Shown piece by piece: positions 2,904-62,800 of a stretch of 64,000 bases of DNA. This stretch comes from Kofleriaceae bacterium (GTDB lineage: Bacteria > Myxococcota_A > Polyangia > Haliangiales > Haliangiaceae): contig JABTUH010000016.1 of NCBI GenBank assembly GCA_015075455.1, positions 64,001 through 128,000 of the forward strand. Reading direction: 5' to 3'. Position 1 is the stretch's first letter. Each line of letters starts with the position of its first letter. The notes beneath the pieces are model-generated. The model saw nothing but the letters and a program-made list of their open reading frames with translations. It did not search any database and was not told the origin of the DNA. Both the position numbers and the translations under genes were made by a program.

Positions 2904-4362
2904 GGGCGACGCCTCCCCCGGCCCGGCGCCGCGCCGGCGCGGTCGCGGGCCTCGCCGTGGCCGCCGGCGGCGGCCTCGCCCTCGCCGCGTGCGGCCCCGA
3001 CGACGTGGTCGTGGCGCCGGTCATCGACGGCCCGGCCGCGGGCAGCGACGCCGCGGCCTTCCCCGACCTCGACGAGCTGGTGATCACCCTCGCCCGCGCC
3101 GGCTCGACCGCCGATCGGCTGTCGGCCACCTTCACCCGCGGCCAGACCGTCGAGCTGCGCGGCGCGCCCGAGGGCGACGAGCTGGTCGTCCACCTCACCG
3201 GCCGCCTCGGCGGCCAGGAGGTGGCCTACGGCCGCACCTGCGCCTTCGCCCTGCGCGCCGGCGAGCCGCCGCCGGCGCCGCACCTGTGGTTCGCGCGCAC
3301 GGTCAAGTGGGGCGAGCTCGACGCCTCGCCGGCGCCGGTCCGCCGCGACGGCCGCGCCGTCGCCTACCGCGACGGCAGCGCCCTGTTCGTCGGCGGCCAC
3401 GACGCCGCCGGCGAGCCGGTGACCGCGGTCGAGCGCTTCGATCCGCGCGCCGGCGCGCTCACCACCGTCGCCGACCTGGCGCCGCGGCGGGCGCCGGTGG
3501 TGGCGAGCCTCGGCGACGGCCGCCTGCTCGTGGCCGGCGGGATCGACGGCGCCAGCGACACCGCGTCCGATCGCCTGGAGGTGCTGGAGCTCGACGTCAC
3601 CGGCGCCGGCCGCGTCGACACCTTCGTCGACCAGCGTCTGGCCCGCGCCGGCGCCACCGCCGTCACCCTGACCGACGGCCGGGTCGTGATCTTCGGCGGC
3701 GGCGCCGTCACCGGGCCGCCGCTGGCGGCGCCGGTCGAGATCGCCGCCGACGGCGCGACCGTCGCCGTGCGCGACCTGCGCGCGGCCATGGCCGTCCCCC
3801 GCCGCGGCGCGACCGCCACCCGGCTCTCCGACGACCTCGGCGCCCCGGTCCTCGTCTCCGGCGGCGTCGACCTCGACGGCCAGCCCGTGGCCCTGGCCGA
3901 GCTGTGGCGGCCGCTGCGCGAGGACTTCGCCGACCCGCAGGCGTTCGCGCCGGCGATGCGCGTGCCGCGCCACCGCCACGCCGCGCCCCGCATGCCCGAC
4001 GGCAGCGTGCTGGTGATCGGCGGCCTCGACGCCGCCGGCCAGCCGGTGCGCGCCCTCGAGCTGTTCACCCTCGACGGCGGCTTCGTCGACGCTGGCCTGC
4101 TGCCGCCCGGAGCCGGCGTCGTCGACGCCACGGTCACCGCCCTGCCCGACGGCCGCATCCTGGTCGCCGGCGGACGCGAGACCGCGGACGGCGAGCCGGT
4201 GCAGGGCGGCTTCATCGTCAACCTCGACCCCCTCGACGGCTCGGTCGACGCCATCAGCACCGACCGCCTCGAGCGCGTCCGCGCCGGCCACGCCGCCACC
4301 GCCCTGTGCGACGGCACGATCGTCGTGCTCGGCGGCACCGAGCTGGCCAGCCCGGTCGAGCG

Positions 4363-6245
<1,883 letters not shown>

Positions 6246-8815: not shown

Positions 8816-8934
8816 CCGCCCATGGTGCGCGAGCCGGCCGCCCCCGTGCAAGCCCGCCGTGCCCCGCCGGGGTCCGCCGCCGCCGTCGTCCCCGCCCCGC
8901 GCGCGCGGCGCGACGGCGGTGGTAGGGTCGCGCG

Positions 8935-10100
8935 GTGGCACGACGTCACGCCCACCGCGCCGGCGACTGGTCGTCGGTGGCGGTGCGCCTCGACGAGATC
9001 ATCAGCGCCCACGGCGGCGCCGATCCGTTCGAGGAGGCGCTCACGCTCCTGGTCGCGCGGCTCGCCCACGAGGCCAGCGGCGGACCGCCGGCCGGGTTCG
9101 TCGGCGGCGCCGCCGGCGCGCCGGCGCGGGTGAACGAGCTGGTCGCGGCGGCGGCGGCGCGGTGGCCGGGCGTCGTCGAGCCCGGCCGCACCACCGGCCT
9201 CGGCGGCGCGGCGCTGGCGCGGTGCGCCGCCGTGCTCGACGGCGTGGCGCTGCTCGGCGACGAGCTGGTCGGCCTCGACGCCGTCTTCGAGCACCTGGTG
9301 GCCCACGTCGCCAAGGGCCAGAAGGGGCAGTTCTTCACGCCCCGCCACGTCATCGCCGAGGTGGTCGCGATGCTGGCGCCGCGGCCGGGCGAGCACGTCG
9401 TCGATCCGGCCTGCGGCTCGGGCGGCTTCCTGTGGCACGCCCTGGCGGCCGCGCCCGGCTGCGTGGCGTGGGGGTTCGACGTCGATCCGCGCGCGGTGCG
9501 GGTGGCGCGAGTCATGCTCGCCGCCCACGGCGCGCCGGTCGGGCGGGTGGCCTGCGTCGACAGCCTGCGCCGGCCGGCGCTCGAGGACCACGCCCGCGGC
9601 CATGGCGCGCCCCGCGGCTTCGACGTCGTCCTGACCAACCCGCCGTTCGCCGGCGACGTCGGCCGCGCCTTCGACGGCGCCTACGAGCTGGCGCGCGGGC
9701 GGGTCGAGCGCGACGTGCTGTTCGTCGAGCGCGTGGTCGAGCTACTGCGCCCGGGCGGGCGCTACGCCATCGTCCTGCCCCACAACAAGGTCGGCGGCGC
9801 GACCTGGAGCCACGTCCGGCGCTGGCTCCTGGCGCGGACCGAGGTGGTGGCGGTGCTCGGGCTCGGCCGCCCCACCTTCCTGCCCCACACCAGCCAGAAG
9901 GCGTGCGTCGTGATCGGCCGGCGGCGCGCCCGCGCCCTGGCGGCGCCGCCCGCTGGCGAGCGGGTGCTGTTCTTCGTCAGCGAGCGCGCCAGCGGGACGC
10001 CCGCGGCATGGCTGGTGCGACGCGAGCGCGCGATCGATCACGACCTGGCGCGGCTGGCCTGGCGGTGCGGGCCTGCTCGCGCGCGGCGGCGCGGGCGGCG
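8935..10100 (+). CDS. N6-adenine DNA methyltransferase, gamma-class (HsdM/TaqI-like); the 3' end is uncertain
   Basis: Motif X/I reads GQFFTPRHVIAEVVAMLAPRPGEHVVDPACGSGGFL and motif IV reads VLTNPPF. Beyond ~10050 the frame degenerates into poly-Arg inside a GC-rich direct-repeat tract (10080-10200). Confidence 0.7.
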
Positions 10101-10439: not shown

Positions 10440-11016
10440 GTGACGGGCGCGCGACCTGGGCAGCGCGGCGGCGCCTGGCGCGGGCGACGTCATCATCTCG
10501 CGCCCAGGCTGTACTGCGGCAGGTCGCGCTCGTCGACGACGACCTGTTCGCGCGGGCGCCGGGCGGCAACCTGGTGGTGGCCTCGACCGAGTTCTACGTG
10601 CTGCGGCGGCGAGGGGGCGGCAGCGGCGCGGGCGCCGACCGCACGACCGGCGGGACTGGCGGCAGCCGCGAGGCGAGCGGTGCCGGCGGTGCCGGCGCGG
10701 ATCGCGGTCGGCGCGCGCCGCCGCCCTCGACCCGGCGGGCCTGGTGCCGTACCTGCTGTCGGCGCCGGTGCAGGCCGCGCTCGCCGCCGGCCAGGAGGGC
10801 GGACACCACCCCCGCTTCGAGCGCGCCCAGCTCGAGGACCTGCCGGTGTCCGACGCCCTGGTGCGCCGCGCGGCGGCGATGGCGCGCGCGGTCCGCGACC
10901 AGGCCGCGAGCTTCGGCGCCGCCGTGGCCGGCGGCCGCGCGCTGATCGCCACCGTCGAGCGCGAGCTGGCGCCACCACCGCGGCGACGCCCCACGCCGCG
11001 CCGCTCGACCCGGTAA
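10440..11016 (+). pseudogene. HsdS-like target-recognition-domain remnant, split over at least two frames
   Basis: Frame 1 has GDVIISRPG (cf. the HsdS GDILISRIG motif). Frame 2 continues with VALVDDDLFARAPGGNLVVASTEFYVLRRR (cf. ...ISSNLFVIRP). Frame 1 from 10744 gives LLSAPVQAALAAGQEGGHHPRFERAQLEDLPVSDALVRRAAAMARAVRDQAASFGAAVAGGRALIATVEREL, which resembles the coiled-coil conserved region of S subunits. No single intact ORF spans this. Confidence 0.4.
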
Positions 11017-17226: not shown

Positions 17227-20200
17227 ATGAGCGAAGGCCCAGGCGCGAGGTCCTCCCGGCGTGGTTCGGCCACCGCACGCCGCCGGCGCAAGGTGGCGTG
17301 GGCGCACCGCCTGCGCCGGGTCGGGATGGCGTGGCAGAACGCGATCGAGATCGTCCGCGCCGGCCGGCTGACCGCCCCCTACGGCGCGCCGTTCGCGATC
17401 GCCCACGAGACCCCGATCTACAAGCTCCGGCACTACCGCGCCGACGACGTACCGGCGCGCGGCGCGCCGCTCCTCCTGGTGCCGCCGCTGATGGTCGCCT
17501 CCGAGGTCTACGACATCGCGCCCGACATCAGCTCGATCAACTACCTGACCCGGGCCGGCGTCGACGTCTGGCTCACCGACTTCGGCGCCCCCGAGCGCGA
17601 GGCCGGCGGCATGGAGCGGACCCTCGACGATCACGTGCGGGCGGTGTCCGACGCCGTCGACCGGGTCCGCGCCGCCACCGGCCGCGACGTCCACCTCGCC
17701 GGCTACTCCCAGGGCGGCATGTTCGCCTACCAGGTGGCGGCCTTCCGCCGCTCCGCCGGCCTGGCCTCGGTCATCACCTTCGGCAGCCCGGTCGACATCC
17801 ACCGCACCGTGCCCATCGCCGACCAGCTCGTCGAGCGCATGGTCGCCGGGCTGCAGCGCGCGGTCACCCTGCCCCTCGATCACATCGACGGCCTGCCCGG
17901 CTTCCTGACCTCGACCGGCTTCCGGCTGCTGAGCGCGCGCAAGGAGATCGGCCAGCTCTTCGACTTCGTCAGCAAGCTGCACGATCGCTCGGCGCTGGAG
18001 AAGCGCGAGGCCCGCCGCCTGTTCCTCGGCGGCCAGGGCTTCGTGGCCTGGCCGGGGCCGGCGCTGCGCAAGTTCATCGACGAGATCATCGTCGCCAACC
18101 GCATGACCTCGGGCGGCATCGTCATCGACGGCCACGCCGTGACCCTGGCCGACATCAGCTCGCCCATCCTCTACTTCCTGGGCGAGCGCGACGAGATGGG
18201 CCGGCCGGCGGCGGTGCGCGGCATCCGCAAGGCGGTGCCGGCGGTCGAGGCGCTGTACGAGGTCCCGGTCAAGGCCGGCCACTTCGGCCTGGTGGTGGGC
18301 TCGACCGCGCTCGCGATCACCTGGCCGACCGTGGTCGAGTGGATCCGCTGGCGCGACGGCGACGGCCCGCCGCCGGTGCGCGCGGTGCCGGTGCCGACGC
18401 GGGACGCCGGCGGCGCCGCCGGGCGCGGCGCCCGGGACGAGGACGACGACGGTCGCGACGAGGCCGACGACGAGGCCGACGCCGGCGTCGACGACGACGA
18501 CATCGAGGCCGCGTTCGGCGAGCTGCAGTTCGACCTCGAGCTGGTGCAGGACGTGATCGGCAACACCGCGCGCGCCGTCCTCGACCGCATCGGCGACGTC
18601 AGCACCGATCTCGGCGACTACCTCGACAACCTGCGCTGGCAGGTGCCGCGCCTGCGCCGCCTGCGCAACCTGCGCGACGACACCGCGATCTCGCTGGGGC
18701 GGACGCTGGCCGATCAGGCCCGCACCATCCCCGAGCGCACGTTCTTCCTGTGGAAGGACCGGGCCTTCACCTACGCCGAGGCCAACCGCCGGGTCGACGC
18801 CGTTGCCCGCGGCCTCATGCAGTGCGGGGTCCGCCCCGGGCTCCGGGTGGCGGTGCTGATGGGCGGGCGGCCCAGCTACTTCTCGGCGGTGACCGCGCTG
18901 TCGCGGATCGGCGCGGTGGCGGTCCTGATCGCCCCCGCCACCCCCGACGCCGCGCTCGGCCGCGCCTTCGACGTCGGCGAGTGCGAGGCCGTGATCGCCG
19001 ATCCCGAGCTGGCGCCGCGGGTGCGGGCGGTGTGGGCCGGCAAGCTGCTGGTGCTGGGCGGCGCCCACGACGCCCGCGCCCTGCCCGCCGGCGCCGTCGA
19101 CCTCGAGGCCATCGATCCGGCGGCGCAGCCCCCGCCCGCCTGGTACCGTCCGGATCCCGGACGCGCTCGCGATCTGGCCCTGGTCTTCGTCTCCGGCGGC
19201 GCGTTCTCGGCGCCGCGGGCCAGCCGCATCACCAACCGGCGCTGGGCGTTCTCGGCCCTGGGCGCCGCCGCCACCTGCACCCTGTCCAACCGCGACACCG
19301 TCTACTGCTGTCTGCCGCTCCACCACCCGACCGCGATGCTGGTCGCCGCCGGCAGCGCCCTGGCCGGCGGCGCCCGCCTCGCCCTGGCCTCGGAGTTCCG
19401 CCCCGACGTGTTCTGGCGCGAGGTCCGCCGCTACGGCGTGACCGTCGTGTACTACGCGGGCGAGCTGTGCCGGCCGCTGGTGCTGGCGCCGCCGATGCTG
19501 GGCGAGCACAACCACCCGATCCGCCTGTTCGCCGGCTCGGGCATGCGCCCCGATCTGTGGCGCAAGCTGCTCGACCGGTTCGGCCCGGTCGGCGTGCTCG
19601 AGTTCTACGCCTCGACCGAGGCCTCGGCGGTGCTGGCCAACGCCTCGGGGCAGAAGGTGGGCGCCGTGGGGCGCCCGCTGCCGGGCAGCCCGGAGCTGGC
19701 GATCGCCGCCTACGACTTCGACGCCGACGAGCTGATCCGCGACGCCGCCGGCCGGCTGGTGCGCGCCCGCGTCGACGAGCCCGGCATGCTGGTGACCCGG
19801 CTCGACTCGCCGCGCGGCATCGCCGACGTCGCCCACCTGCCGCCGGCCCGTCTGCTGCGCGACGCCTTCGCCCCCGGCGACACCTGGTTCTTCTCCGGCG
19901 ACATCCTGACGATCGACGGCGACGGCGACTACTGGTTCGTCGATCGCTGGGGCGACACGATCCGCACCGCCGCCGGACCGGTCACCACCCGCCGCATCGA
20001 GGACGCGCTGCACGGCGTGCCGGCGGTGCTGGCATGCGCGGCGGTCGGCGTGACCATGACCGGCGAGCCGGGCGAGGTGCCGGCCGCCGCGTTCGCGCTC
20101 ACCGCCGGCGCCGCGCTCGATCTCGCCGCGCTGTCGGCGGCGGTGGCGACTCTGCCCGAGCACATGCGCCCGCGCCGCCTGCGCCGGGTCGAGGGCATCC

Positions 20201-49655: not shown

Positions 49656-50501
49656 TCACAGGCAGGCGACGAAGGCCCGCTCCACCGAGCCGGCGTAGCC
49701 GCCGCCGAAGAGGACGACGTGAACGAGCAGCGGGTAGAGCTGCCACAGCGGCACGCGCTCGTCCCAGCCCGGCTCGAGGGGGAAGGCCTCGTCGTAGGCG
49801 GCGAGGGTCCGCGGCTCGAGGCCGCCGAACAGCGCCAGCATCGCCAGGTCGACCTCGCGCGGGCCGCCGTAGACCGCCGGGTCGATCAGCGCCGGCGCGC
49901 CGCCGCTGACCAGCACGTTGCCGCTCCACAGGTCGCCGTGCAGCCGCGCCGGCGGCTCGGCCGGCGCCAGCGCGTCGGCGCGCGCGGCCAGCTCGTCCAC
50001 CGCGCGCCGCCAGCGGGCGGGCCCACGGCCCAGCGCGATCGCGCGCTCGACCATCGGCGCCAGCCGGCGCTGGAACCACAGCTCGTCCCAGGTCGCGGCC
50101 GGCGCGTTGTCCTGGGGCAGGGTGGCGATGAAGCTCGGCGCGTCGAGGCCGAAGCGCGGCGCGCCGGCGCGATGGAGCGCGGCCAGGCCGCGACCGAGGG
50201 CGGCCGCGGTGTCGGCGCCGGCCGGCCCCGGCGCGAGCCACTCGAGGACCAGCGCGTGCGCGTCGTGGCCGAGCACGGCGGGCACCCGCAGCGCGCCGGC
50301 CGCCGCCAGCCAGGCCAGGCCGTGGGCCTCGGCGGCGAACAGGCCCGCGGGCGGCGCCGGGTCGTGCTTCACGAAGACGGTGCGGCCGTCGGTGAGCTCG
50401 GCGCGGAACGCCTGGTTGATGTCGCCGCCGTGGACCCGCTCGAGCCGCCGCGCCGCGGTGCCGGTGATCGCGACCAGCGACGCCTCGACGGCGGCGCTCA
50501 C
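49656..50501 (-). CDS. fructosamine/ketosamine kinase family protein
   Basis: The GTG start overlaps the upstream stop (GTGA). Motifs: GGDINQA, VFVKHDP, HGDLWSGN, DPAVYGGPREVDLAM. Confidence 0.8.
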   Translation of the reverse strand: MSAAVEASLVAITGTAARRLERVHGGDINQAFRAELTDGRTVFVKHDPAPPAGLFAAEAHGLAWLAAAGALRVPAVLGHDAHALVLEWLAPGPAGADTAAALGRGLAALHRAGAPRFGLDAPSFIATLPQDNAPAATWDELWFQRRLAPMVERAIALGRGPARWRRAVDELAARADALAPAEPPARLHGDLWSGNVLVSGGAPALIDPAVYGGPREVDLAMLALFGGLEPRTLAAYDEAFPLEPGWDERVPLWQLYPLLVHVVLFGGGYAGSVERAFVACL

Positions 50502-50989
50502 GACCCGGATCCGGCGCCGGCCAGCCGCGGGTGCAGCGCGGCGACCAGCCCGGCGCACGCGGCCTCGCAGATGTCGAGGACGCGCTCGAAGCCGTCGTCG
50601 CCGCCGTAGTACGGGTCGGGCACCTCGGCGCCGTCGGGCGCGTCGGGGTCGTAGCTGCGGAGCAGCCGGACCCGGGCGCGGGCCGCGGCGTCGGGCGCCA
50701 GCCCCAGCACCGCGCGCTGGTTGGCGGCGTCCATGGTCAGGATGAGGTCGAAGCGCTCGAAGTCCACGCGCTGGAACTGGCGAGCGCGGTGCGCGAGCTC
50801 GATCCCGCGCGCCCGCGCCGCCGCCCGGGTCCGCGGGTCCGGCAGCTCGCCGACGTGCCAGCCGCCGGTGCCGGCGCTGTCGACGGTCACCCGCCCGGCG
50901 AGCCCGGCGCGCTCCAGGGTGAGGCGCATCACCCCCTCGGCGGTGGGCGAGCGACAGATGTTGCCCAGGCAGACGAAGCAGATCCTCAC
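50498..50989 (-). CDS. low-molecular-weight protein-tyrosine phosphatase
   Basis: N-terminal P-loop [20 protein letters not shown] (CX5R), plus the DPYY motif (EVPDPYYGG). Confidence 0.85.
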
Positions 50990-51006
50990 GTCGCTGCCGG
51001 TGTACC

Positions 51007-52377
51007 ATGGCGGCGATGCGCCGAGCCGCCCTCTCCCTGCTCGTGCTCTGGCTCGGCGCCTGCGCCTTCGAGCCGCGCGGCGGCGATCCCGACGCCACCG
51101 CCACCGACGCCGCCACCGACGCGCCGGACGACGACGGCGACGCCGCCGTCCCCGACGCCGCCACCGACGCCGCCGTCCCCGACGCCGCCGTCCCCGACGC
51201 CGCCGTCCCCGACGCCGCCGTCCCCGACGCCGCCACCGACGCCGCCGTCCCCGACGCCGCCACCGACGCCGCCGTCGACGCCAGTCCCGACGCGCCGCCG
51301 CTGGTCGACATCGCCTACCTGCCGCCGGCGGCCGAGGTGCCCGGCACCGGCGACGTGACCATCAGCGGGCTGATCACGATCGACACCTCGCCCACCGGCT
51401 CGCGCCCGAACCTCGGCGCCGGCACGTCGTACTCGGTGGCGACCCCGACCGGGGGCGGCGCCGACATCGTCGTCCTCCACGTCGACGACCTGACCATCAC
51501 CGCCGCCGGCACGCTGCGCGTGGTCGGCGCCCGACCGTTCGCGATCGTCGCCGGTGGCGCGGTCGTGATCAGCGGCAGGCTCGACGCCAGCGCCACCGGC
51601 ACCACCGTCGCTGGCCCCGGCGGCGGCGGCCCCAGCGCCGGCACCGGCGAGGGCGGCGACGGCAGCCACGCCGGCACGCGCACCGACAGCGGCGGCGGCG
51701 GCGCTGGCCACGGGACGAGCGGCGCGCGCGGCGGCAACGCCACCTGCAACCTCGGCTGCCTCCCGAACGTCGTGACCGCCGGCGGCGCCGGCGGCGTCGC
51801 GTACAACGCCGGGCTCACCCAGCTCGTCGGCGGCTCGGGCGGCGGCAACGCGGCGGCGGCCAGCGGCACCTGCCCCGGCCAGCCCGGCGGCGCCGGCGGC
51901 GGCGCCGTGCTGATCTACGCCGCGGGCTCGATCACCGTCGCCGGCGTCATCGCCGCGCACGGCGGCGGCGGCGGCCGCGGCGTCGCCTGCTCGGGCACGG
52001 TGTCGACCGCCGGGGCCGGCGGCGGCTCGGGCGGTCAGCTCGACCTGCAGTCGCCGTCGATCACGGTCAGCGGTCAGATCGGCGCCAACGGCGGCGGCGG
52101 CGGCGGTGGCTCCGACGGCAGCGACGGCGACGGCCAGCCCGGCCAGGACGGGCGCGACGACGGCAACCAGGCCAGCGGCGGCGCCGGCAGCGGCAACGTG
52201 GGCGGCGACGGCGGCGCGGGCGGTGCCGGCGCCTCCGGTCCCGGCCAGGGCGAGGACATGGGCAACGATCAGAACGGCGGGGGCGGCGGCGGCGCGGTCG
52301 GACGGGTCACGATCCGCCACCGCGGCGCCCAGCCCACCGTCGCCTCGAGTCCGCCTCCCACCTACATCCCCTACTGA
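51007..52377 (+). CDS. Gly-rich lipoprotein (paralog 1, intact) with DAAVPD/DAATDA hexapeptide repeats and a Gly-rich beta-helix-like C-terminal region
   Basis: ATG at 51007. Lipobox LWLGAC|AFEPRG. An 18-bp in-frame tandem repeat runs 51145-51285. The C-terminus is GRVTIRHRG... Confidence 0.7.
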
Positions 52378-52428
52378 CCCGGCCGCGAACGCTCGCCACG
52401 AGCGCCTCCCGGGGCGATACTCGGCCCG

Positions 52429-53822
52429 ATGTGGCCGTACCGCGTCGCCCCGGCGATCCTGGCCCTGGCGCTCCTGGCGCCCGCCTGCGCCTTCGAGCCC
52501 CGCGGCGAGGAGCTCGCGGCCGACGCCGCCCTGGCCGACGGCGCGGTCGACGCGCGCCCCGACGACGGCGGAGGCGACGACGACGCGGCGGCCATCGACG
52601 CGAGCGTGATCGACGCCGGCCTCACCGACGCCCGCCCCGACGCCGCGATCGTCGACGCCGCGATCACCGACGCCCGCCCCGACGCCGCGATCGTCGACGC
52701 CGGGGTCACCGACGCCCGGCCGCCCGACGCCGGCGTCGACGCCGGCGCGGTCGACGACATCGTCCACGTCCGGGCGATCGACGAGCACCTCGGCACCGGC
52801 GACTGGACCCTGACCGCGAACGCGAGCGTGCGGACGTTCGGCACCGGCGCTGGCTTCGACGTCCCGCTACCGGCCGGGGTGACCTTCGAGAACGCGCCCC
52901 AGGATCCGAGCGAGCCGACGCTCGCGATCCTCCGCGTCCGCCACCTCACGATCGCCAGCGGGGTCACCCTGCGCGTGGTCGGCGCCGCGCCGTTCGTCGT
53001 CATCGCCGAGAGCGTGACGCTCTCCGGCGTCATCGACGCCGGCGCCCGCCTCGGCGTGGCCGGCGGCGGCGCCACGGCCGGGATCGGCGTCGGCGGCGAC
53101 GGCGCGCACCGCGGCCTCTACTCCGACGGCGGCGGCGGCGGCGGCAGCTTCGCCACCAGCGGCGGCCGCGGCGGTAACGCCTTCTGCGACACCGGCTGCA
53201 CCCCGAACACGACCGCGCCCGGCGGCGCCGGCGGCGCGCTCCACGGCGACGCCATGCTGACCACGCTCCAGGGCGGCTCGGCCGGCGGACGAGGAGCGGC
53301 CCCCGCCGGCTGCACGATGGGGCCCGTCGGCGCCGGCGGCGGCGCGGTCCAGCTCTACGCCCGCACGTCGATCGTCATCGGCGCGGGTGGCGGCGTCAAC
53401 GCCGGCGGGGGTGGCGGCGCCCGGGGCGAGCAGTGCCTCGGCAACTGGGGCGCGGCTGCACGGCGGCGGCGCCGGCGGCGCCATCTACCCGCAGTCGCCG
53501 AGCGTGGTCAGCGGCGCGGGCGTCCGCGCCGCCAACGGCGGCGGGGTCAGGCGGCAGCGCCGCGGCAGGATGCTGGCCGGCCGGCGCGCGCGACGGCGCG
53601 AGGCACGCGAGCGCCCGCGCCGGCGGCGCGCCGGGCAACGGCAACCTGAGCGCGCGCAGGCGGCGACGGCGCCTGCGGTCGGGATCGCCGCGCCGAACGG
53701 CGGCGTCGGCAACGCCGGCAACTGAAAGCGGCGGCGGCGGCGGCGCCGACGGCACTGCCGCATCGTCATCCGCCACCGCGGCACGGTCATCGCCGGCACC
53801 ACCAGCCCAGCCCCGCGGTGAC
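52429..53822 (+). pseudogene. Gly-rich lipoprotein paralog 2, with frameshifts in the Gly-rich region
   Basis: ATG at 52429. Lipobox LLAPAC|AFEPRG. It is collinear with paralog 1 up to ~53460 (GAVQLYARTSIVIGAGGG). The continuation (LHGGGAGGAIYPQSPSVVSG... and the terminal CRIVIRHRGTVIAGTTSPAPR*) lies in other frames. Confidence 0.5.
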
Positions 53823-53834
53823 GGCGGCCTGACT

Positions 53835-55070
53835 GATGCGGCGGCGGCGGCGTCCACGATCGCGGCGCCTGGCCGTCGCGCTGGCGCTCACGCTCACCGG
53901 GGTGCGCCGGCGAGCCGCGCGGCGCGCGCCGACGACGACGCCGCCGCGCCCGACGCGCCGGGGACGACGTCGACGCCGCGACCACCGACGCGCTCGAACC
54001 TGAGCGACGGCCGCGCCGCACCAGAGCGCCCGTCGCAGCGCGACGCCACCCACCTGGGCAGCGAGGATCTGGTCTTCGACGCCGCGCACGATCGACACCT
54101 CGGCGCGCCACGGTCACGGATCACGCTGCCGGTCGGGGTCGAGCTGGTCGCGGCGCCCAGAGCGAAGCGGCCCCCGGCTCGCCCACCGAGCGGCGAGTGC
54201 GCGGCCTGACCCTCGCCGAGGCGGCGGCTGCGTCTCGTCCGCGCGATCGGCTCGCGCCGCCCTGGTGATCCGCGAGAGACCGCGTCAGATCCGACGGCGT
54301 CCGAAGACGCCGCGCGCCGCCGCGATCAACCCGGCGCCGGTGGCTCGGACCGCGCGCGGGCATCGGCCGCGGCGGCGACGGCGTGCGCGACGGCAGCTAC
54401 GCCGACAGCGTGACCGGCGGCGGCGGCGGCTTGGTCAGCCAGCGGCGCCAAGGGTGGCGACGCCAGCGGCGCCGCCGGCGGCGAGGGCGGCCTGGCCTTC
54501 GGCGACCCCAACCTCGACCTCCTGCTCGGCGGCGCCGGGGGCGGCGGCGCGTCGTCGAGCGGCTGCGACGCCACCACCGCCGGCGCCGGCGGCGGCGCGC
54601 TCCAGATCTACGCCCGCACGTCGATCGAGATCACCACCACCGGCGCGATCAACGCCGGCGGCGGCGGCGGCGGCGGCGGCCGGAGCTGCTCGTTGCAGTA
54701 CCTGGCCGGGACCGGCGGCGGCTCCGGCGGCGCCATCTACCTGCAGTCGCCGGTCATCGCCAGCGCGGGCATCCTCGCCGCCACCGGCGGCGGCGGCGGC
54801 GGCGGCGCCAGCAACGACCACGGCGGCCCCGGCGGCGACGGCACCGCGACCACCGCCCGCGCCACCGGCGGCACCTCCGGCGGCGCCACCTACGGCGCGG
54901 TCGGCGGCCGGGGCGCCGCCCAGGTCGGCGACGCCACCGCCGGCGACAACGGGCCCAGCCTCGGCAACGGCGGCGGCGGCGGGGGCGGCGGCGGCCGCAT
55001 CGTCGTCAGCTACCGCGACACGCTCGAGGAGGGCACCGTCAGCCCGTCGGCCGTCAAGCGGCAGTTCTGA
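53835..55070 (+). pseudogene. Gly-rich lipoprotein paralog 3, heavily frameshifted; the last ~125 codons are intact in frame
   Basis: Signal-like RRLAVALALTLTG and ..CAGEPRGA.. appear in two frames near 53835-53920. The 54440-55070 frame gives [20 protein letters not shown]...[25 protein letters not shown]...[24 protein letters not shown], which is homologous to the paralog 1 C-terminus. Confidence 0.4.
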
Positions 55071-55118
55071 CCTGGCGTCCGGGGTCCGAGGCCCGACGGC
55101 CGACGGCCCTTCGACCGC

Positions 55119-55553
55119 GGAACCCGAGCCCGGAGCCGAACCCGAGCCCGAGCCCGAATCCGAATCCGAACCCGAGCCCGAATCCAGGCCCGAATCCGAA
55201 TCCGAACCCGAGCCCGAATCCGAGCCCGAATCCGAACCCGAATCCGAGCCCGAACCCGGATCCGAACCCGAGCCCGAATCCGAACCCGAGCCCGAGCCCG
55301 AATCCGAATCCGAACCCGGATCCGAACCCGAACCCGAACCCGAACCCGGATCCGAATCCGAACCCGAATCCGAATCCGAACCCGAGCCCGGAGCCGAACC
55401 CGAACCCGAATCCGAATCCGAACCCGAATCTGAGCCCGAGCCCGGAGCCGAACCCGAACCCGAATCCGAATCCGAACCCGAATCCGAACCCGAACCCGAG
55501 CCCGAACCCGAATCCGAACCCGAGTCCGAGTCCGAGCCCGAGCCCGAACCCGA
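55119..55553. repeat. hexanucleotide microsatellite (GAACCC/GAGCCC/GAATCC)n, ~72 units
   Basis: There is a perfect 6-bp periodicity with three unit variants. The repeat lies between convergent gene ends (55070 and 55580). The minus strand reads (GGGTTC/GGGCTC/GGATTC)n. Confidence 0.9.
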
Positions 55554-55579
55554 TCGTCCGTCTCCCGGACGCCCCCAGC

Positions 55580-56122
55580 TCAGTCCGACAGCTCGCCGGT
55601 CCAGTACAGGTAGTCGCGCCAGGCGTCGGGCACCGACCGCAGGCTGACCCGGATCGTCACCGCCGGCACCCAGTCGGGCTGGACCGGCTGCGCGCGCAGC
55701 GCCATGCCGGCCTGGCGCGGCGTGCGCCCGCCCTTCCTGCGGTTGCAGTCGTGGCACGCCGTGACGATGTTCGTCCACTCGGTGCGGCCCCCCTGCGAGC
55801 GCGGCACGACGTGATCGTAGGTGAGCTCGTCGACGCCCAGCTTGTCGCCGCAGTACTGGCAGGCGTAGCCATCGCGGGCGTAGATGTTGACCCGCGAGAA
55901 CTTCACCGGCCGGTGGTGGCGGCGGAAGGCGCGCAGGAGCCGGACCACGCTCGGGATCTTGATGATGAACGTCACCGAGCGGACGGCGTCGCCGTACTCC
56001 TCCACCACCTCGACCTTGCCGAGGAACAGGAGCGTGATCGCTCGCTGCCACGAGATGACCTTGATGGGCTCGTAGCTCTGCGACAGGAGAAGGGTCTTGT
56101 GACCCGGTGCCGTGGCCTCCAT
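55580..56122 (-). CDS. HNH endonuclease family protein (small standalone HNH)
   Basis: ATG at 56122 (alternative at 56146). The N-terminal segment is [26 protein letters not shown]. The HNH core is CQYCG...[28 protein letters not shown]. Confidence 0.8.
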
Positions 56123-56223
56123 CGGGAACAGTCCAGACGATAGCATCTCCGTCCGACGACGCACCGCGCCGCCGATCACGGCCAGGACGCCGGCGGGGAC
56201 GGCACGACGCGACGACGCCGAAG

Positions 56224-56240
56224 TTGAAAGCGGCTTTCAA
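56224..56240. promoter_or_regulatory. perfect inverted repeat TTGAAAG-CGG-CTTTCAA upstream of feoA (candidate operator, e.g. a Fur-type regulator)
   Basis: It has 7-bp arms and a 3-bp spacer, and sits 18 bp upstream of the feoA GTG start. An AT-rich element TGTGATAGCG follows. Confidence 0.4.
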
Positions 56241-56257
56241 TGTGATAGCGTGCCGCC

Positions 56258-56482
56258 GTGTCGTCACTCGCCGACGTCGGGCGTCACGTCCCCGTCACCA
56301 TCGCCTCGGTCGACGGCGAGCGGAGCTTCCGCAGGCGTCTCCTGGAGATGGGCCTCGTCCCCGGCACCCGGGTGACCGTCACCAACGTGGCCCCGCTCGG
56401 CGACCCGCTCGAGATCGAGGTCCGCCGCGGCCGGCTGTCGATCCGGCGCCACGAGGCCGCTCACATCCTGGTCACGCGCTAG
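56258..56482 (+). CDS. feoA: ferrous iron transport protein A
   Basis: 74 aa. SH3-like FeoA sequence: VTIASVDGERSFRRRLLEMGLVPGTRVTVTNVAPLGDPLEIEVRRGRLSIRRHEAAHILV. Confidence 0.85.
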   Translation: MSSLADVGRHVPVTIASVDGERSFRRRLLEMGLVPGTRVTVTNVAPLGDPLEIEVRRGRLSIRRHEAAHILVTR

Positions 56483-56493
56483 GTCCGCCCCGG

Positions 56494-58629
<2,136 letters not shown>

Positions 58630-58724
58630 CGCCGGGGTCGCCCTCCGGCTGCGGCCCCGGCCGGCGCGGCCGGGCCGAACCGGTCGGCCTGGTCGAGTCG
58701 GCGCCGCGATGCTATGAGCACCAA

Positions 58725-60566
58725 GTGCTCGGGTGGAGGATCCCACGCGCCGCCGCGCTCGTCGCGGCGACCGGCGGCCTGCTCGCGGCCTGCGGTCGCG
58801 CCCCCGACGCCGCCGAGCCGACGCCCGCGTTCGCGCCCCCGCCCCCGCCGCGGGTCGCCAGCAACATCCTGCGCGCCGACTACGCCGGCTCGGCGGCGTG
58901 CGCCGACTGCCACGCCGACCTCGCCGCGGCCTGGGCCGGCTCGCCGATGCACCTCATGACCCGCGACGCCGCCACCGCCCACGTCGAGGCCCCGTTCGAC
59001 GGCGCCACCTTCCGCGTCCACGACGACACCGTGACCATGGAGACCGCGGGCGGCCACCGCTTCGTCCACCTGTCGTCGACCAGCGCCGGCGAGCGCCGGT
59101 ACCGCGTCACCAAGATCATCGGCGGCCGCTACCGCGAGGACTTCGCCGGCGTCGAGGTCACCCACGCCCGCGACCCCTTCACCGCCGGCGGCCGCGAGCG
59201 GGTCATGCCGATGTCGTTCGTGTACTCGACCCGGTCGTGGCGCTACAAGGGCTACTCGGTCATGACCCCGGAGCGGCCGGGCATGCGCCCGGGCGCGGCG
59301 TGGGCGCAGAAGTGCATCGGCTGCCACAACACGCTGCCCTACCTGGCGCTCCTGTTCGACGACCTGCTGGGGCCCGGCGCGCCCAGCTACCAGGGCACGA
59401 TGTCGGATCGCCTGCTGCCCCCGGCGCGGACGTGGCCGGTCGAGATCGCCGACGCCGAGGCGCTGCGGACGGCGCTGGTCGACGAGCTGACCTTCCTGCG
59501 CGGCGCGCCGCCCGAGGCCGCCGGCGGGCCCCTGCCGGCGCTCCTGGCCGAGGCCATCTCCACGGCGCGCCGCCACCTCGACGGCGATCGCGTGGTCGAG
59601 CTCGGCATCGGCTGCGAGTCCTGCCACAACGGCGCCCGCGCCCACGTCGACGATCCCGACGTCCTCCCCAGCTTCGAGGTCCGCAGCGCCGCGCTCCGGA
59701 TCGGCCCGCGCCCCGGCGCCCGCGCCCCGACCGAGGCCGAGCGGATCAACCGCGTCTGCGCCCGCTGTCACACCGTCCTGTTCTCGGCCTACCCCCACAC
59801 CTGGGAGGGCGGCCGGCGCGACCAGCCGACGCCGGGCGGCAGCACGACCAACTCCGGCGAGGCCCGCGACTTCCTGCTCGGCGGCTGCGCCAGCGAGCTG
59901 GCCTGCACCGCCTGCCACGATCCCCACGCCCGCGATCGCGACGACCGGCTGGCCGCGCTCGCGGGCGCGGGCGGCGACGCGCTGTGCACCTCGTGCCACC
60001 CGGCGCTCGCCGACGCCGCCGCGGCCGCCGCCCACACCCACCACCCGGCCGACAGCGCCGGCGCGCGCTGCCTCAACTGCCACATGCCGCGCAAGAACAT
60101 GGGCCTCGGCTACGAGCTGGTCCGCTACCACCGCATCGGCTCGCCCACCGAGCGCGCGCGGGTCGAGGGCGACCGCCCGCTCGAGTGCGCGCTGTGCCAC
60201 CCCGACCGCAGCGTCGCCGAGCTGGTGACGACGATGGAGGCCTGGTGGCCGGTGCGCTTCGACCGCGTCGCCCTGCGCCGGCTGTACGGCGACGATCTGG
60301 GCGTGAACGCGCTCGCCGCCACCGTCGCGCGGGGCAAGGCCCACGAGCAGGCGGCCGCGATCGGCGCGCTCGGCGAGCACCGCGTTCGCGCCGCCGTGCC
60401 GGCGCTGGTGCCGCACCTCGCCCACGAGTACCCGCTGGTCCGCTACTACGCCCACCACGCGCTCGAGCAGATCGTCGGCCGGCCGGTGCCGCTCGACGTC
60501 GGGCTGCCGGCGGCCGAGATCCGCGCCGCGGCGGAGCGCTGGCTCGCCCTCGACGCCGCGCCCTGA
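58725..60566 (+). CDS. multiheme c-type cytochrome lipoprotein (8 CxxCH motifs) with a C-terminal HEAT-like repeat region
   Basis: GTG at 58725 gives MLGWRIPRAAALVAATGGLLAAC|G. Heme motifs: CADCH, CIGCH, CESCH, CARCH, CTACH, CTSCH, CLNCH, CALCH. Confidence 0.8.
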   Translation: MLGWRIPRAAALVAATGGLLAACGRAPDAAEPTPAFAPPPPPRVASNILRADYAGSAACADCHADLAAAWAGSPMHLMTRDAATAHVEAPFDGATFRVHDDTVTMETAGGHRFVHLSSTSAGERRYRVTKIIGGRYREDFAGVEVTHARDPFTAGGRERVMPMSFVYSTRSWRYKGYSVMTPERPGMRPGAAWAQKCIGCHNTLPYLALLFDDLLGPGAPSYQGTMSDRLLPPARTWPVEIADAEALRTALVDELTFLRGAPPEAAGGPLPALLAEAISTARRHLDGDRVVELGIGCESCHNGARAHVDDPDVLPSFEVRSAALRIGPRPGARAPTEAERINRVCARCHTVLFSAYPHTWEGGRRDQPTPGGSTTNSGEARDFLLGGCASELACTACHDPHARDRDDRLAALAGAGGDALCTSCHPALADAAAAAAHTHHPADSAGARCLNCHMPRKNMGLGYELVRYHRIGSPTERARVEGDRPLECALCHPDRSVAELVTTMEAWWPVRFDRVALRRLYGDDLGVNALAATVARGKAHEQAAAIGALGEHRVRAAVPALVPHLAHEYPLVRYYAHHALEQIVGRPVPLDVGLPAAEIRAAAERWLALDAAP

Positions 60567-60747
60567 CCTCGAGGCCACGTTGATGTCGGTTCAGGCAGCG
60601 GCCGCGCGCGGTTAGCCCGCCGCCGTCGGCCGCGAGCCGGCGTCGTCGACGGCGCGCGCGAGCACGGCTCAGCGCGCGCACCGGAACATTAGCGTCCAGG
60701 AAACATGCCGGAGCCTTTCGGTCGATAGGGTGCGGTCACACCTGGAG

Positions 60748-61641
60748 GACACGCACATGATCCGCTTCGCATCCAAGCTCGGCCTGCTCGCCGCCACGCT
60801 GTTCGCCCTCGCGCCTGCCTCGGCCCGCGCCGAGGAGCCGGACGCGCTGCCCGGCTCCGAGGAGGGCGAGGAGCCGGCCGGGGCCGCCCCCGCGCCCGCG
60901 GCCGACGCCGCGTCCACGACCGCGGCCGTCGACGCCAGTGCCCCGACGCGCTGGCCGCGCGACGTCATCATGCGGCCCCTGACCCTGCCGTCGGGCGTGG
61001 TCATGGTCGGGATGGATCCCGCCGCCAACAACGACTTCTCGGCGGTGTCGACGACGCTGGTCGCCGGCTACGGCATCTCCGACAAGCTCGAGGCCGTGCT
61101 GTTCTACGGCTACGGGCTCAAGGACTTCGAGGTCAAGGGTGACCTCAAGGCCGGCGTCGGCTACGCCGCCCTCCGCGGCGCCGCCGGCGGCAAGCTGGAG
61201 GTCGTGCCCCGCGCCGTGGTCGGCTACAGCCTCCTGGGCGAGGCCCTCACCCCGCTCGGCCTCGGCGCTCAGGTCCAGTACAACATCAGCGACAAGCTCG
61301 CCGTGATCACGCCCGGCGGTCAGCTCGCGGTGAGCCTGGCCGAGGACGCCACCATGGCCACGCCGATCACCTTCGGCCTCCCGGTCGCGGTCGGCTTCCA
61401 GCCGACCCCCGAGCTCTACCTGCAGCTCGACACCAACCTGGCGACCTTCAGCATCGCCGACTCCGCCAACGCCTTCATCTTCGCCGATCGCACGCCCGCG
61501 TCGCTGCTGGCGGTCTACAACGCGATCCCCGCCCTCGACGTCGCCGCCGGCATCGGCCTCGACCTGACGCCGGCCGCCGGCGGGGTCGCCGACACCCTGG
61601 CCTTCCTGCTCGGCGTCCGCTACTACGCCGGCTCGCTCTGA
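60748..61641 (+). CDS. outer-membrane beta-barrel protein
   Basis: ATG at 60748 is preceded by GGAGGA 9 nt upstream. Signal MIRFASKLGLLAATLFALAPASARA. Alternating beta-strand patterns are present. An AT-richer promoter-like region lies at 60570-60745. Confidence 0.6.
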   Translation, partial: DTHMIRFASKLGLLAATLFALAPASARAEEPDALPGSEEGEEPAGAAPAPAADAASTTAAVDASAPTRWPRDVIMRPLTLPSGVVMVGMDPAANNDFSAVSTTLVAGYGISDKLEAVLFYGYGLKDFEVKGDLKAGVGYAALRGAAGGKLEVVPRAVVGYSLLGEALTPLGLGAQVQYNISDKLAVITPGGQLAVSLAEDATMATPITFGLPVAVGFQPTPELYLQLDTNLATFSIADSANAFIFADRTPASLLAVYNAIPALDVAAGIGLDLTPAAGGVADTLAFLLGVRYYAGSL

Positions 61642-61680
61642 CGCGTGGTTCGCCCGACCGCGGTCGGAGCTCGCGGGAAC

Positions 61681-62800
61681 CGAACGGCGAGCCATGGATC
61701 GAGCAGGGTCGCCCTGAGCCCAGCCTGGTGCCGCGGTCGCCCTGAGCCCATCGCTCCGGTCGCCCTGAGCGCCATCGCCGGTCGCCCTGAGCCCATCATC
61801 CGGTCGCCCTGAGGAGTTGAGCGCTGCCGGTCGCCCTGAGCCCATCGCTGCCCGAAAAGTAGCCCTGCGCCCATGCTCCGGTCGCCCTGAGCCCATCGCA
61901 GGGACCGCGCCCTGAGCCGCCCGCGAGCGCCCGCCCGGGCGTCCGAATCCGGCGACGAGTCCGCGGCCGTCGCGCGAACGATGTCGCGCGCGCGCCCGAG
62001 GCCGGAGTCGGGCCCCTTCACCGACCGCGGTCGGAGACTGGACGCACGAACGGCCGCGGCCGTGCCGTCCGCCGGTCGCCCGTCGCCCCGCCCAGCGCCG
62101 GGGCCTGATCTCAGGGTCAGCGCGTCATGGCGCCCCGCGAATCGCCCTGAGCCCGAATCCGTCGCCCTGTCCCTGAGTCCGCATCGATCCGCTGGTCGGA
62201 GCCGAATCCGAATCCAGCGGTGGCCCTGAGCCGAATCCCAGCGAGGGCGGGCCCGAGCACCGCGAGGGCTTTCAAGCAGCGGCGTCGCGCGAACGATGTC
62301 GGGCGCGTGCCGCCCGAATCCGTTCGTCGGGAGCCCTTCCCGCCGGGCGAGCGGCCGAGACTGCGCGCGAACGGCGAGCCCTGCTCGACCGGACGCCCTG
62401 AGCCCATCGCCCGGCGTCGCCCTGAGCCTTCGTCGCCAAGGCTCGCCCTGAGCCCATCGCCAGGCAGCCCGAGCCGCCCGCGAGCGCCAGCGAGGCGAGT
62501 CGCTGGCATCCGCGGCTCGCGGCACGTCGCGCGAACGATGTGGGCGATCGCGGCGCTCGCATTGCGGAAACCTTGAGCGCCCCATCATGCCGCCCTCGCA
62601 GCCCGAACCCGAGCGAAGTCGAACGGCGAGCCTGCGCTGCTCGGCGACCGCTGCGCGCCCATCGCGCTGCGGGGCCCTGAGCATCCGCGGGAGACGCCGG
62701 CGAGCCCTATCGCGTGGCCGCATCGCCGGTCGGCCTGAGCCGCCCGAGCGCCAGCGAGGGCGTGTCGAAGGGCGACAAGCCGCATGCACGCGCGAGCGAT
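61681..62800. repeat. complex nested tandem repeat: an array of ~22-28 bp GGTCGCCCTGAGCCCATCG units embedded in ~250-310 bp higher-order units
   Basis: The core array runs 61707-61925 with at least 8 units at spacings 28/23/22/22/27/51 bp (not multiples of 3). Further copies appear at ~62143-62240, 62393-62450 and 62665-62745. Co-recurring motifs are cgaacggcgagcc (61681, 62371, 62621), gccgcccg(cg)agcgcc (61918, 62476, 62737) and cgcgaacgatgt (61975, 62289, 62530). Confidence 0.85.

Follow-up and report, generated by a model that had tools for sequence, protein, structure and literature searches.

Intergenic repeats with units of 6–9 bp serve for MLVA typing in Xanthomonas, Burkholderia, and Xylella. 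REP and BIME elements are extragenic palindromes, interspersed in many copies, which are found between convergent genes at their 3′ ends. The repeats of contingency loci are located in promoters or in 5′ coding regions, and their unit length is usually not a multiple of three. Among eukaryotic G-rich hexanucleotide repeats are the human telomeric (TTAGGG)n and the C9orf72 (GGGGCC)n expansion. Here, we describe a hexanucleotide tract in a stretch of 64,000 nt, the whole of which we call the window, from the MAG of an uncultured soil-type Kofleriaceae (Myxococcota) bacterium. This tract has the defining features of a bacterial noncoding SSR/VNTR and is of a known kind: like such loci, it has a short unit repeated head to tail, is intergenic, varies in copy number among strains, and presumably changes by slippage. 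It opens no new category of element. Unlike typical VNTR loci, it comprises 72 units of three well-mixed variants, at the extreme of the lengths observed, and the literature that we searched describes no VNTR locus of this kind from its uncultured myxobacterial family. The tract stands out by its length, by its composition of three unit variants, and by an RNA structure that differs between the two strands.

Like REP and BIME elements, the tract is located outside genes, between convergent 3′ ends, and one of its transcripts can form a stable hairpin. In addition, an actual REP-like element of 49 nt is inserted in the allele of two related strains (L211/L212). Unlike REP and BIME elements, it is a tandem array, and because its pairing requires G·U wobble, this pairing is strong in RNA but weak in DNA. 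As it occurs only once in the 64-kb window, with no second copy, we rejected its membership in a REP/BIME or MITE family. A CRISPR array was rejected because the units are contiguous, without spacers.

Parsed unit by unit, the tract consists of 72 hexamers in register, without indels, over 432 nt. Tandem Repeats Finder reports 55120–55553, with a period of 6, 72.3 copies, 79% matches, 0% indels, and a score of 469. Both analyses agree with the about 72 uninterrupted 6-bp units placed at 55119–55553 by the initial annotation, the coordinates of which are only 1–2 bases off. The units are GAACCC (26), GAATCC (20), GAGCCC (16), GGAGCC and GGATCC (3 each), GAGTCC (2), AGGCCC (1), and GAATCT (1), and according to this census they vary at positions 2–4 only. 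We found 58 matches to (GARYCC)3 with at most one mismatch in the window, every one of them within the tract, for 0.01 expected from shuffled sequences. The GC content of the tract is about 66%, against 75.7% for the window. Its plus strand is composed of 43% C, 23% G, 27.5% A, and 6% T, with a C/G ratio of 1.9 that places it in the top 1.4% of 78-nt windows. No higher-order periodicity was found, identity within the tract being flat (0.79–0.84) at every multiple of 6, and only a few multi-unit blocks are duplicated.

The tract occupies most of a 509-nt spacer separating two converging stop codons (table 1). Its placement between the 3′ ends of two genes agrees with the initial annotation. On one side lies the third of three genes encoding Gly-rich lipoproteins, the full extent of which is about 53877–55070 by comparison with positions 3620–4813 of a second assembly of the same strain (L081). 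On the other side lies a gene encoding an HNH endonuclease identical to MBE7453589.1 and MCL4226277.1, both annotated as Kofleriaceae bacterium (MAGs). The position of the HNH stop codon is kept in all relatives compared. Divergent feoA-feoB genes are found beyond the HNH gene. The motif CCCTTCGACCGCGG, in the spacer on the lipoprotein side, corresponds to one arm and the center of the palindrome CGACCGCGGTCG from the spacers of relatives L004 and L211/L212, which suggests a short-motif homology.

Table 1. Features of the hexanucleotide tract and its immediate surroundings (positions in the window).
Feature	Position	Strand or unit	Remarks
Gly-rich lipoprotein paralog no. 3, in-frame 3′ part	54693..55070	+	Stop TGA 55068–55070
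Spacer from lipoprotein stop to array	55071..55119	.	Contains the motif discussed in the text
Imperfect hexanucleotide array	55120..55551	plus (GARYCC)n, minus (GGRYTC)n	Tandem Repeats Finder, unit census, pattern matches, identity with L081 and L087
Canonical G3N3 x4 quadruplex motif, (GGGTTC)4	55327..55347	-	
Second canonical G-quadruplex motif	55489..55509	-	
Spacer from array to HNH stop, 28 nt	55552..55579	.	Read from the sequence
HNH endonuclease gene, 180 aa	55580..56122	-	PF01844/PF14279; stop 55580–55582

The initial annotation had left room for an assembly artefact. An exact look-up of the FeoA protein led us to GCA_023382815.1 (L081), a second and independent assembly of this strain. 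Over 54443–61690, it matches the window except for one SNP, and the 561 nt comprising the tract and its flanks are 100% identical. The ENA contig L087 contains 252 nt of the tract, and these are identical too. Since the same sequence recurs in independent assemblies, the tract is not an assembly artefact. Several short-read contigs break in or beside it, which counts in favor of an artefact. Most short-read contigs of its species end within the tract, which matters for the quality of MAGs. The same initial description had suggested a contingency tract. Like the Neisseria and Haemophilus contingency loci, this is a hypervariable simple repeat; unlike them, it is positioned 3′ of both genes and its unit is 6 nt long, so that changes in its length cannot switch promoter spacing or reading frame. 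The contingency proposal is not supported, and we consider that the tract is almost certainly neither a phase-variation switch nor an artefact of assembly.

The tract is noncoding. In the relatives L002, L003, L004, and L217, the HNH stop and the lipoprotein stop (…F*) are at the same positions, 17–60 nt apart, with no repeat between them. As both stops in the window are orthologous to these, the tract is outside both genes. The frame past the HNH stop would read (RV/RA/RI)n and that past the lipoprotein stop (TR/AR/IR)n. The GC3 of the six frames of the tract ranges from 0.55 to 0.81, compared with 0.95–0.98 in the HNH, feoA, and feoB genes, and the GAA:GAG ratio is 47:18 in the EP frame, compared with 1:39 in these three genes. 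Codon usage is thus non-native in every frame, which argues against translation. No start codon was found near the tract in the (EP/ES)n frame of the window, and no gene is called over this region in L081. The noncoding status proposed initially is therefore confirmed by the orthologous stops, the codon usage, and the gene calls.

Nevertheless, we weighed the possibility that the tract is translated, either as a low-complexity stretch, (EP/ES)n, (NP/SP)n, or (GS/DS)n, within a gene that a frameshift or an assembly error conceals, or as a small lipoprotein. Five of the six frames are open across it, and it shows a weak match to PF05887, the trypanosome procyclin (EP)n repeat, at 49.6 bits for a cutoff of 100. 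In L001, an ORF begins with the lipobox-like MKSSGRAGEWFALVASC and continues into (EP)n, but it runs on into antisense HNH sequence and carries no domain. Many metagenomic (GARYCC)n runs are in long ORFs reading (PE)n, and an array in another genome, the (GGTTTC)15 of L076, is in frame as an (ET)n C-terminal tail. Against this reading stand the conserved stops of both neighbors, the lack of a nearby EP-frame start in the window and of a called gene in L081, and the codon usage given above, and we judge it highly improbable. Having examined the six frames, starts, GC3, codon usage, Pfam, and NCBIfam, we rejected all coding interpretations, including a low-complexity (EP)n repeat of the TonB spacer or procyclin type, for which the score is below cutoff, a start is lacking, and the codons are non-native.

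Querying species-representative genomes with the HNH protein, we obtained 80 loci, all from MAGs of Kofleriaceae, Haliangiales, or Myxococcales. Strains that share 98.3% identity with the window in the HNH-feoAB block (3 kb) carry the repeat at the same place, as different alleles. The allele of the window and of L081, with 72 units, is a mix of GGGTTC, GGATTC, and GGGCTC when read on the minus strand. That of L211 (= L001; GCA_900696455.1) has 34 units, 26 GGGCTC and 6 GGACTC among them, and a mini-array of 5 units followed by the 49-nt REP-like insert. L212 (GCA_014584455.1) has 17 units with the same flanks and insert, and differs from L211 by a clean 102 nt. As these lengths come from short-read assemblies, in which arrays may collapse, the difference between 34 and 17 units could be partly technical. 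In L213 and L214 (ERZ3604704 and ERZ3604713), the contig ends within the array, which is devoid of the insert and is built on an 18-nt super-unit, GGGCTCGGGCTCGGACTC. L082 matches the window on the HNH side and ends in GAGTCC-rich units. When the window is aligned with L001, homology is lost exactly at the HNH stop codon. Conversely, the tract is absent from species 80–83% identical over the flanking block (L002–L005, L217, and L218), the spacer being 17–60 nt long where measured. Only L001, L020, and L025 have three or more GARYCC units among the 80 Kofleriaceae loci. Allelic differences among near-identical strains, together with absence from the 80–83% identical species, indicate a recent, species-specific VNTR. 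The hypervariability anticipated by the initial annotation is thus seen in alleles of 72, 34, and 17 units and one differently organized allele, and the search for the unit in related genomes, which it had also proposed, finds the repeat in the 98.3% identical strains and not in the 80–83% identical species.

The 49-nt insert, AGGAGACCCGCTCACCCTGAGCGGAGCCCCGAAGGGGCGGAGTCGAAGG, splits the repeat in L211/L212 (3713–3761; 6582–6630 in L001) and is absent in L213/L214. By blastn-short, L074 has a copy 89% identical over 45 nt, and a 17-nt core is present twice in L031. Judging from these sequence matches, the insert represents a small interspersed REP-like family.

The length of the tract is unusual. 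In 1.32 Mb of Kofleriaceae DNA, the longest true hexamer arrays have 72 (window), 34 (L001, orthologous), 25 (L013), 19 (L014), and 15 (L076) units. A metagenome scan with (GARYCC)6 returned at least 120 heterogeneous contigs, many of them probably marine eukaryotic or coding (PE)n, which we used for the distribution of lengths only; 120 contigs with at least six GARYCC units typically have 6–30 and at most 64. The tract's own locus was not found among these matches, and the exact 27-nt 3′ end of the HNH gene gave no match in the metagenome scan. In a survey of 117,861 genomes, short tandem repeats were not enriched in bacteria (PMC12699852). Given these lengths in Kofleriaceae and metagenomes and this survey, the description of such a length as rare in bacteria is fair. 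If the tract is what it appears to be, it is among the longest noncoding hexanucleotide arrays seen in a bacterial chromosome and could serve directly as a marker of strains in an uncultured Kofleriaceae species.

Several other arrays were encountered in Kofleriaceae-type DNA. In L220 (3547–3727; also in L221–L225), from a species with about 82% identity across the flanking genes, the convergent spacer of 178 nt is one long hairpin. This palindrome, of about 160 nt, is built from arrays of hexamers in inverted orientation, (GTCCAC/GTCCAG/GACCAC)n…(GTGGAC/GTGATC)n, with RNA folding z-scores of −5.2 and −7.3 on the two strands. L025 contains two copies (10545–10775 and 20003–20160) of a short intergenic element that has (GAGCCC)3–4 on one side and, on the other, (GGGCTC)3 and a conserved, hairpin-containing tail of about 40 nt. 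The middles of the two copies differ, one copy is located just downstream of the HNH gene, and the element looks MITE- or REP-like. In L075, from the MAG that also contains L001, 14 tRNA genes (Ser, Pro, Val, Pro, Ala, Asp, Asp, Ala, Cys, Val, Thr, Arg, Arg, and Glu; 3942–5425) form an array downstream of a paralogous HNH gene, and (CCCGTT/CCCGAT)12 separates tRNA-Asp from tRNA-Ala (4719–4787). L064 carries (CGTTGGC)17 at 10754–10871, 235 nt past an HNH stop, at a contig end. In L013, (GCCCGT)25 followed by (CCCTCGG)n occupies a divergent promoter region (8896–9110). The (GAGACC/GAGGCC)19 array of L014 (9331–9442) is about 10 nt past the stop of an FGE-sulfatase-like gene, and at least 27 GGGTTC/GGTCTC/GGCCTC units in L091 (about 120–290) lie about 20 nt past the stop of an HxlR-like regulator gene. 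The (GGTTTC)15 of L076 is located between convergent genes (1699–1786).

The tract had been described initially as a classical quadruplex-forming arrangement. Two canonical motifs are indeed present on the minus strand (table 1), and they are the only two runs of four consecutive G3 units in the tract. However, GGG is found in only 43 of the 72 minus-strand units, the other 29 having GG only. Taking as criterion at least four runs of three or more G, loops of 1–7 nt, and a G4Hunter score of at least 1.2–1.5, the tract has a mean score of 0.89, with 11 of its 408 25-nt windows at 1.2 or above and none at 1.5. These figures make the tract a marginal quadruplex candidate, and the description is partly right but overstated. 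Like telomeric and C9orf72 repeats, the tract is made of G-rich hexamers, with strand-asymmetric structure potential (hairpin or G4) and unstable length, and its unit GGGTTC is one base apart from telomeric GGGTTA. Unlike them, it is internal to a bacterial chromosome, 40% of its units are without GGG, its G4 propensity is sub-threshold, and it has no telomere or disease context.

RNA folding predictions point to another structure. The minus-strand unit GGRYTC is a wobble palindrome in which G1 pairs with C6, G2 with U5 by wobble, and R3 with Y4. The HNH-sense RNA of the tract has a predicted energy of −363.8 kcal/mol, compared with −252 ± 5.7 for shuffled sequences (z −19.7), and about 95% of its bases are paired in the fold, through 95 G-C, 87 G·U, and 24 A-U pairs. 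Conversely, the z-score of the plus-strand RNA is −0.57. This asymmetry arises because the G·U pairs of one strand become A·C mismatches on the other. With DNA parameters, the z-scores are −3.3 for the minus strand and +2.8 for the plus strand. The L211 allele shows the same trend, with −6.3 for the HNH-sense RNA and +0.27 for the opposite RNA. An isolated (GGGUUC)4 RNA is predicted to favor G4 over hairpin (−12.6 vs. −2.7 kcal/mol), but when the whole tract is folded with G4 energies on, no quadruplex is present at minimum energy and about 95% hairpin pairing remains. According to these models, the hairpin potential of the HNH-sense RNA is a stronger structural property than the G-quadruplex. 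Rfam matches, restricted to miRNA hairpins on the minus strand, were far below threshold in our scan of the tract, and a known RNA family was rejected.

These data bear on the main structural idea of the initial annotation, namely that the tract acts through a G-quadruplex on the minus strand and an i-motif on the plus strand as a barrier to replication or transcription. The two motifs of the tract are among only nine canonical ones in the 64 kb, and the isolated four-unit RNA is predicted to favor a G4. Such motifs are nevertheless common at 76% GC, as 129 regions of the window have a G4Hunter score of at least 1.2, and both the scores and the whole-tract fold count against this proposal. We consider this barrier very unlikely.

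The location and the predicted hairpin raise a different possibility, that of a selected 3′-end element, either a strand-asymmetric bidirectional terminator, an insulator, or an mRNA stabilizer. HNH transcripts would end in, or be protected by, a long G·U-rich hairpin and lipoprotein transcripts would present an untranslated, unstructured RNA, rich in C and poor in G, for the loading of Rho, in the manner of REP/BIME elements or of the hairpin-only terminators of high-GC bacteria. The tract is exactly where both transcripts must end, the minus-strand RNA is strongly structured and the plus-strand RNA is not, and the plus strand is C-rich. Judged by composition only, the plus-strand RNA is rut-like over the 432 nt, a rut-like region being at least about 70–80 nt of untranslated, C-rich, G-poor, and weakly structured RNA. 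The independent hexamer-built palindrome in the equivalent spacer of the L220–L225 lineage, the L025 element located past the HNH gene, with its inverted (GAGCCC)n…(GGGCTC)n ends, and the arrays just past stop codons in L014, L076, and L091 also fit this hypothesis. On the other hand, most relatives lack the tract and 17–60 nt suffice, and near-identical strains differ in its length, unit composition, and flanks. Between 54800 and 56400, we found no intrinsic terminator-like site on either strand, and the hairpins of the tract are not followed by a U-tract; an intrinsic terminator was rejected on this basis. No sigma-70 promoter pattern was found at the locus. Finally, the GGACTC unit, with its A·C opposition, is depleted in the window (Fisher p = 0.019), yet among the minor units of the L211 allele it is the main one. 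As it breaks the wobble palindrome, this argues against selection for pairing, which we did not accept. Taken together, a selected 3′-end element is unlikely.

A broader version extends to three cases, the (GGRYTC)n of this locus and two sets of inverted arrays, (GTCCAC)n/(GTGGAC)n of L220 and (GAGCCC)n/(GGGCTC)n of L025. The HNH/lipoprotein spacer of Kofleriaceae, and perhaps 3′ ends generally, might repeatedly evolve hexamer-array structures that would function as a previously undescribed strand-asymmetric bidirectional terminator or insulator, with a giant RNA hairpin proposed for one direction and a Rho-loading C-rich tail for the other. We hold this to be distinctly unlikely. The literature that we searched contained nothing specific on myxobacterial hexanucleotide repeats or on repeat-based terminators. 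As a natural case of a repeat with two transcripts of sharply different predicted structure, the tract is a convenient test object for repeat instability and for hairpin- versus Rho-dependent termination in high-GC bacteria.

We consider it likely that the tract is a noncoding, strain-variable hexanucleotide VNTR, recent in one Kofleriaceae species and most probably grown by slippage. Neutral or nearly neutral, slippage-driven evolution is the best-supported explanation. The absence of unit indels, the clean multi-unit differences between alleles, the duplicated blocks, and units linked by transitions fit repeated gain and loss of units and the spread of variants. In mutation-accumulation lines of Myxococcus xanthus, single-unit changes in short tandem repeats accounted for 69% of indels, and these repeats mutated at a rate up to about 820-fold above that of non-STR mutations (PMC11069108). 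The tract would have arisen inside a former spacer of 17–60 nt between the HNH and Gly-rich lipoprotein stops, and would have grown, and still be changing, by replication slippage and unequal exchange involving one to many units. The variants GAGCCC, GAACCC, and GAATCC, which follow one from another by G:C-to-A:T transitions, have most probably spread through the array in the same manner. As each GGRYTC unit is quasi-palindromic (G-C, G·T/U, R-Y), the G-rich strand can fold back anywhere in the tract; a hairpin is thus a likely slippage intermediate and plausibly helped growth. As a probable consequence, HNH transcripts would contain a very long hairpin in their 3′ untranslated part, and those from the lipoprotein gene would carry a C-rich tail devoid of structure. 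Two observations do not fit the simplest form of this scenario. The alleles of the window and of the L211 type also differ in the unique flanks beside the array, so that part of their difference may be due to recombinational replacement instead of stepwise slippage. Moreover, the three unit types are well mixed, which simple single-unit slippage does not produce; multi-unit events are needed, of which the few duplicated blocks are the only sign observed.

The lipoprotein gene next to the tract had been called a decayed paralog, which is doubtful. The upstream part of this third paralog is indeed frame-broken in the window, but not in L081, where three intact Gly-rich lipoprotein genes of 448, 472, and 397 aa lie in tandem, the 397-aa product having the lipobox LTGGC. 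The window and L081, although from the same strain, differ there by about 50 clusters of small indels and mismatches, confined to 53457–54442, compared with the one SNP in the next 7 kb. The intact genes of L081 and this clustering indicate that the frameshifts probably stem from faulty assembly or polishing of one of the two sequences. The three paralogs (about 50240–55070 in the window; 777–4813 in L081) are without Pfam or NCBIfam match. In this lineage, they are located in opposite orientation between the HNH gene and a gene encoding a LMW phosphotyrosine phosphatase, two genes that are directly adjacent in L025 and L055. The window and L081 also show two in-frame differences in length, of 15 nt at 51164–51178 and 30 nt at 52704. 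Both are within coding tandem repeats (51089–51300, with periods of 12–42, and 52610–52745, with a period of 42), which correspond to linkers at the N terminus of the lipoprotein paralogs. Variation thus extends to the repeats within these coding sequences. On the other side of the HNH gene, in the divergent promoter region that it shares with feoA, we identified the palindrome GTTGAAAGCGGCTTTCAA (56222–56240), which is probably an operator of the feoAB operon. A similar palindrome, GTTGAAAACAACTTTCAA, is found at the equivalent place in L013 (8806–8823).
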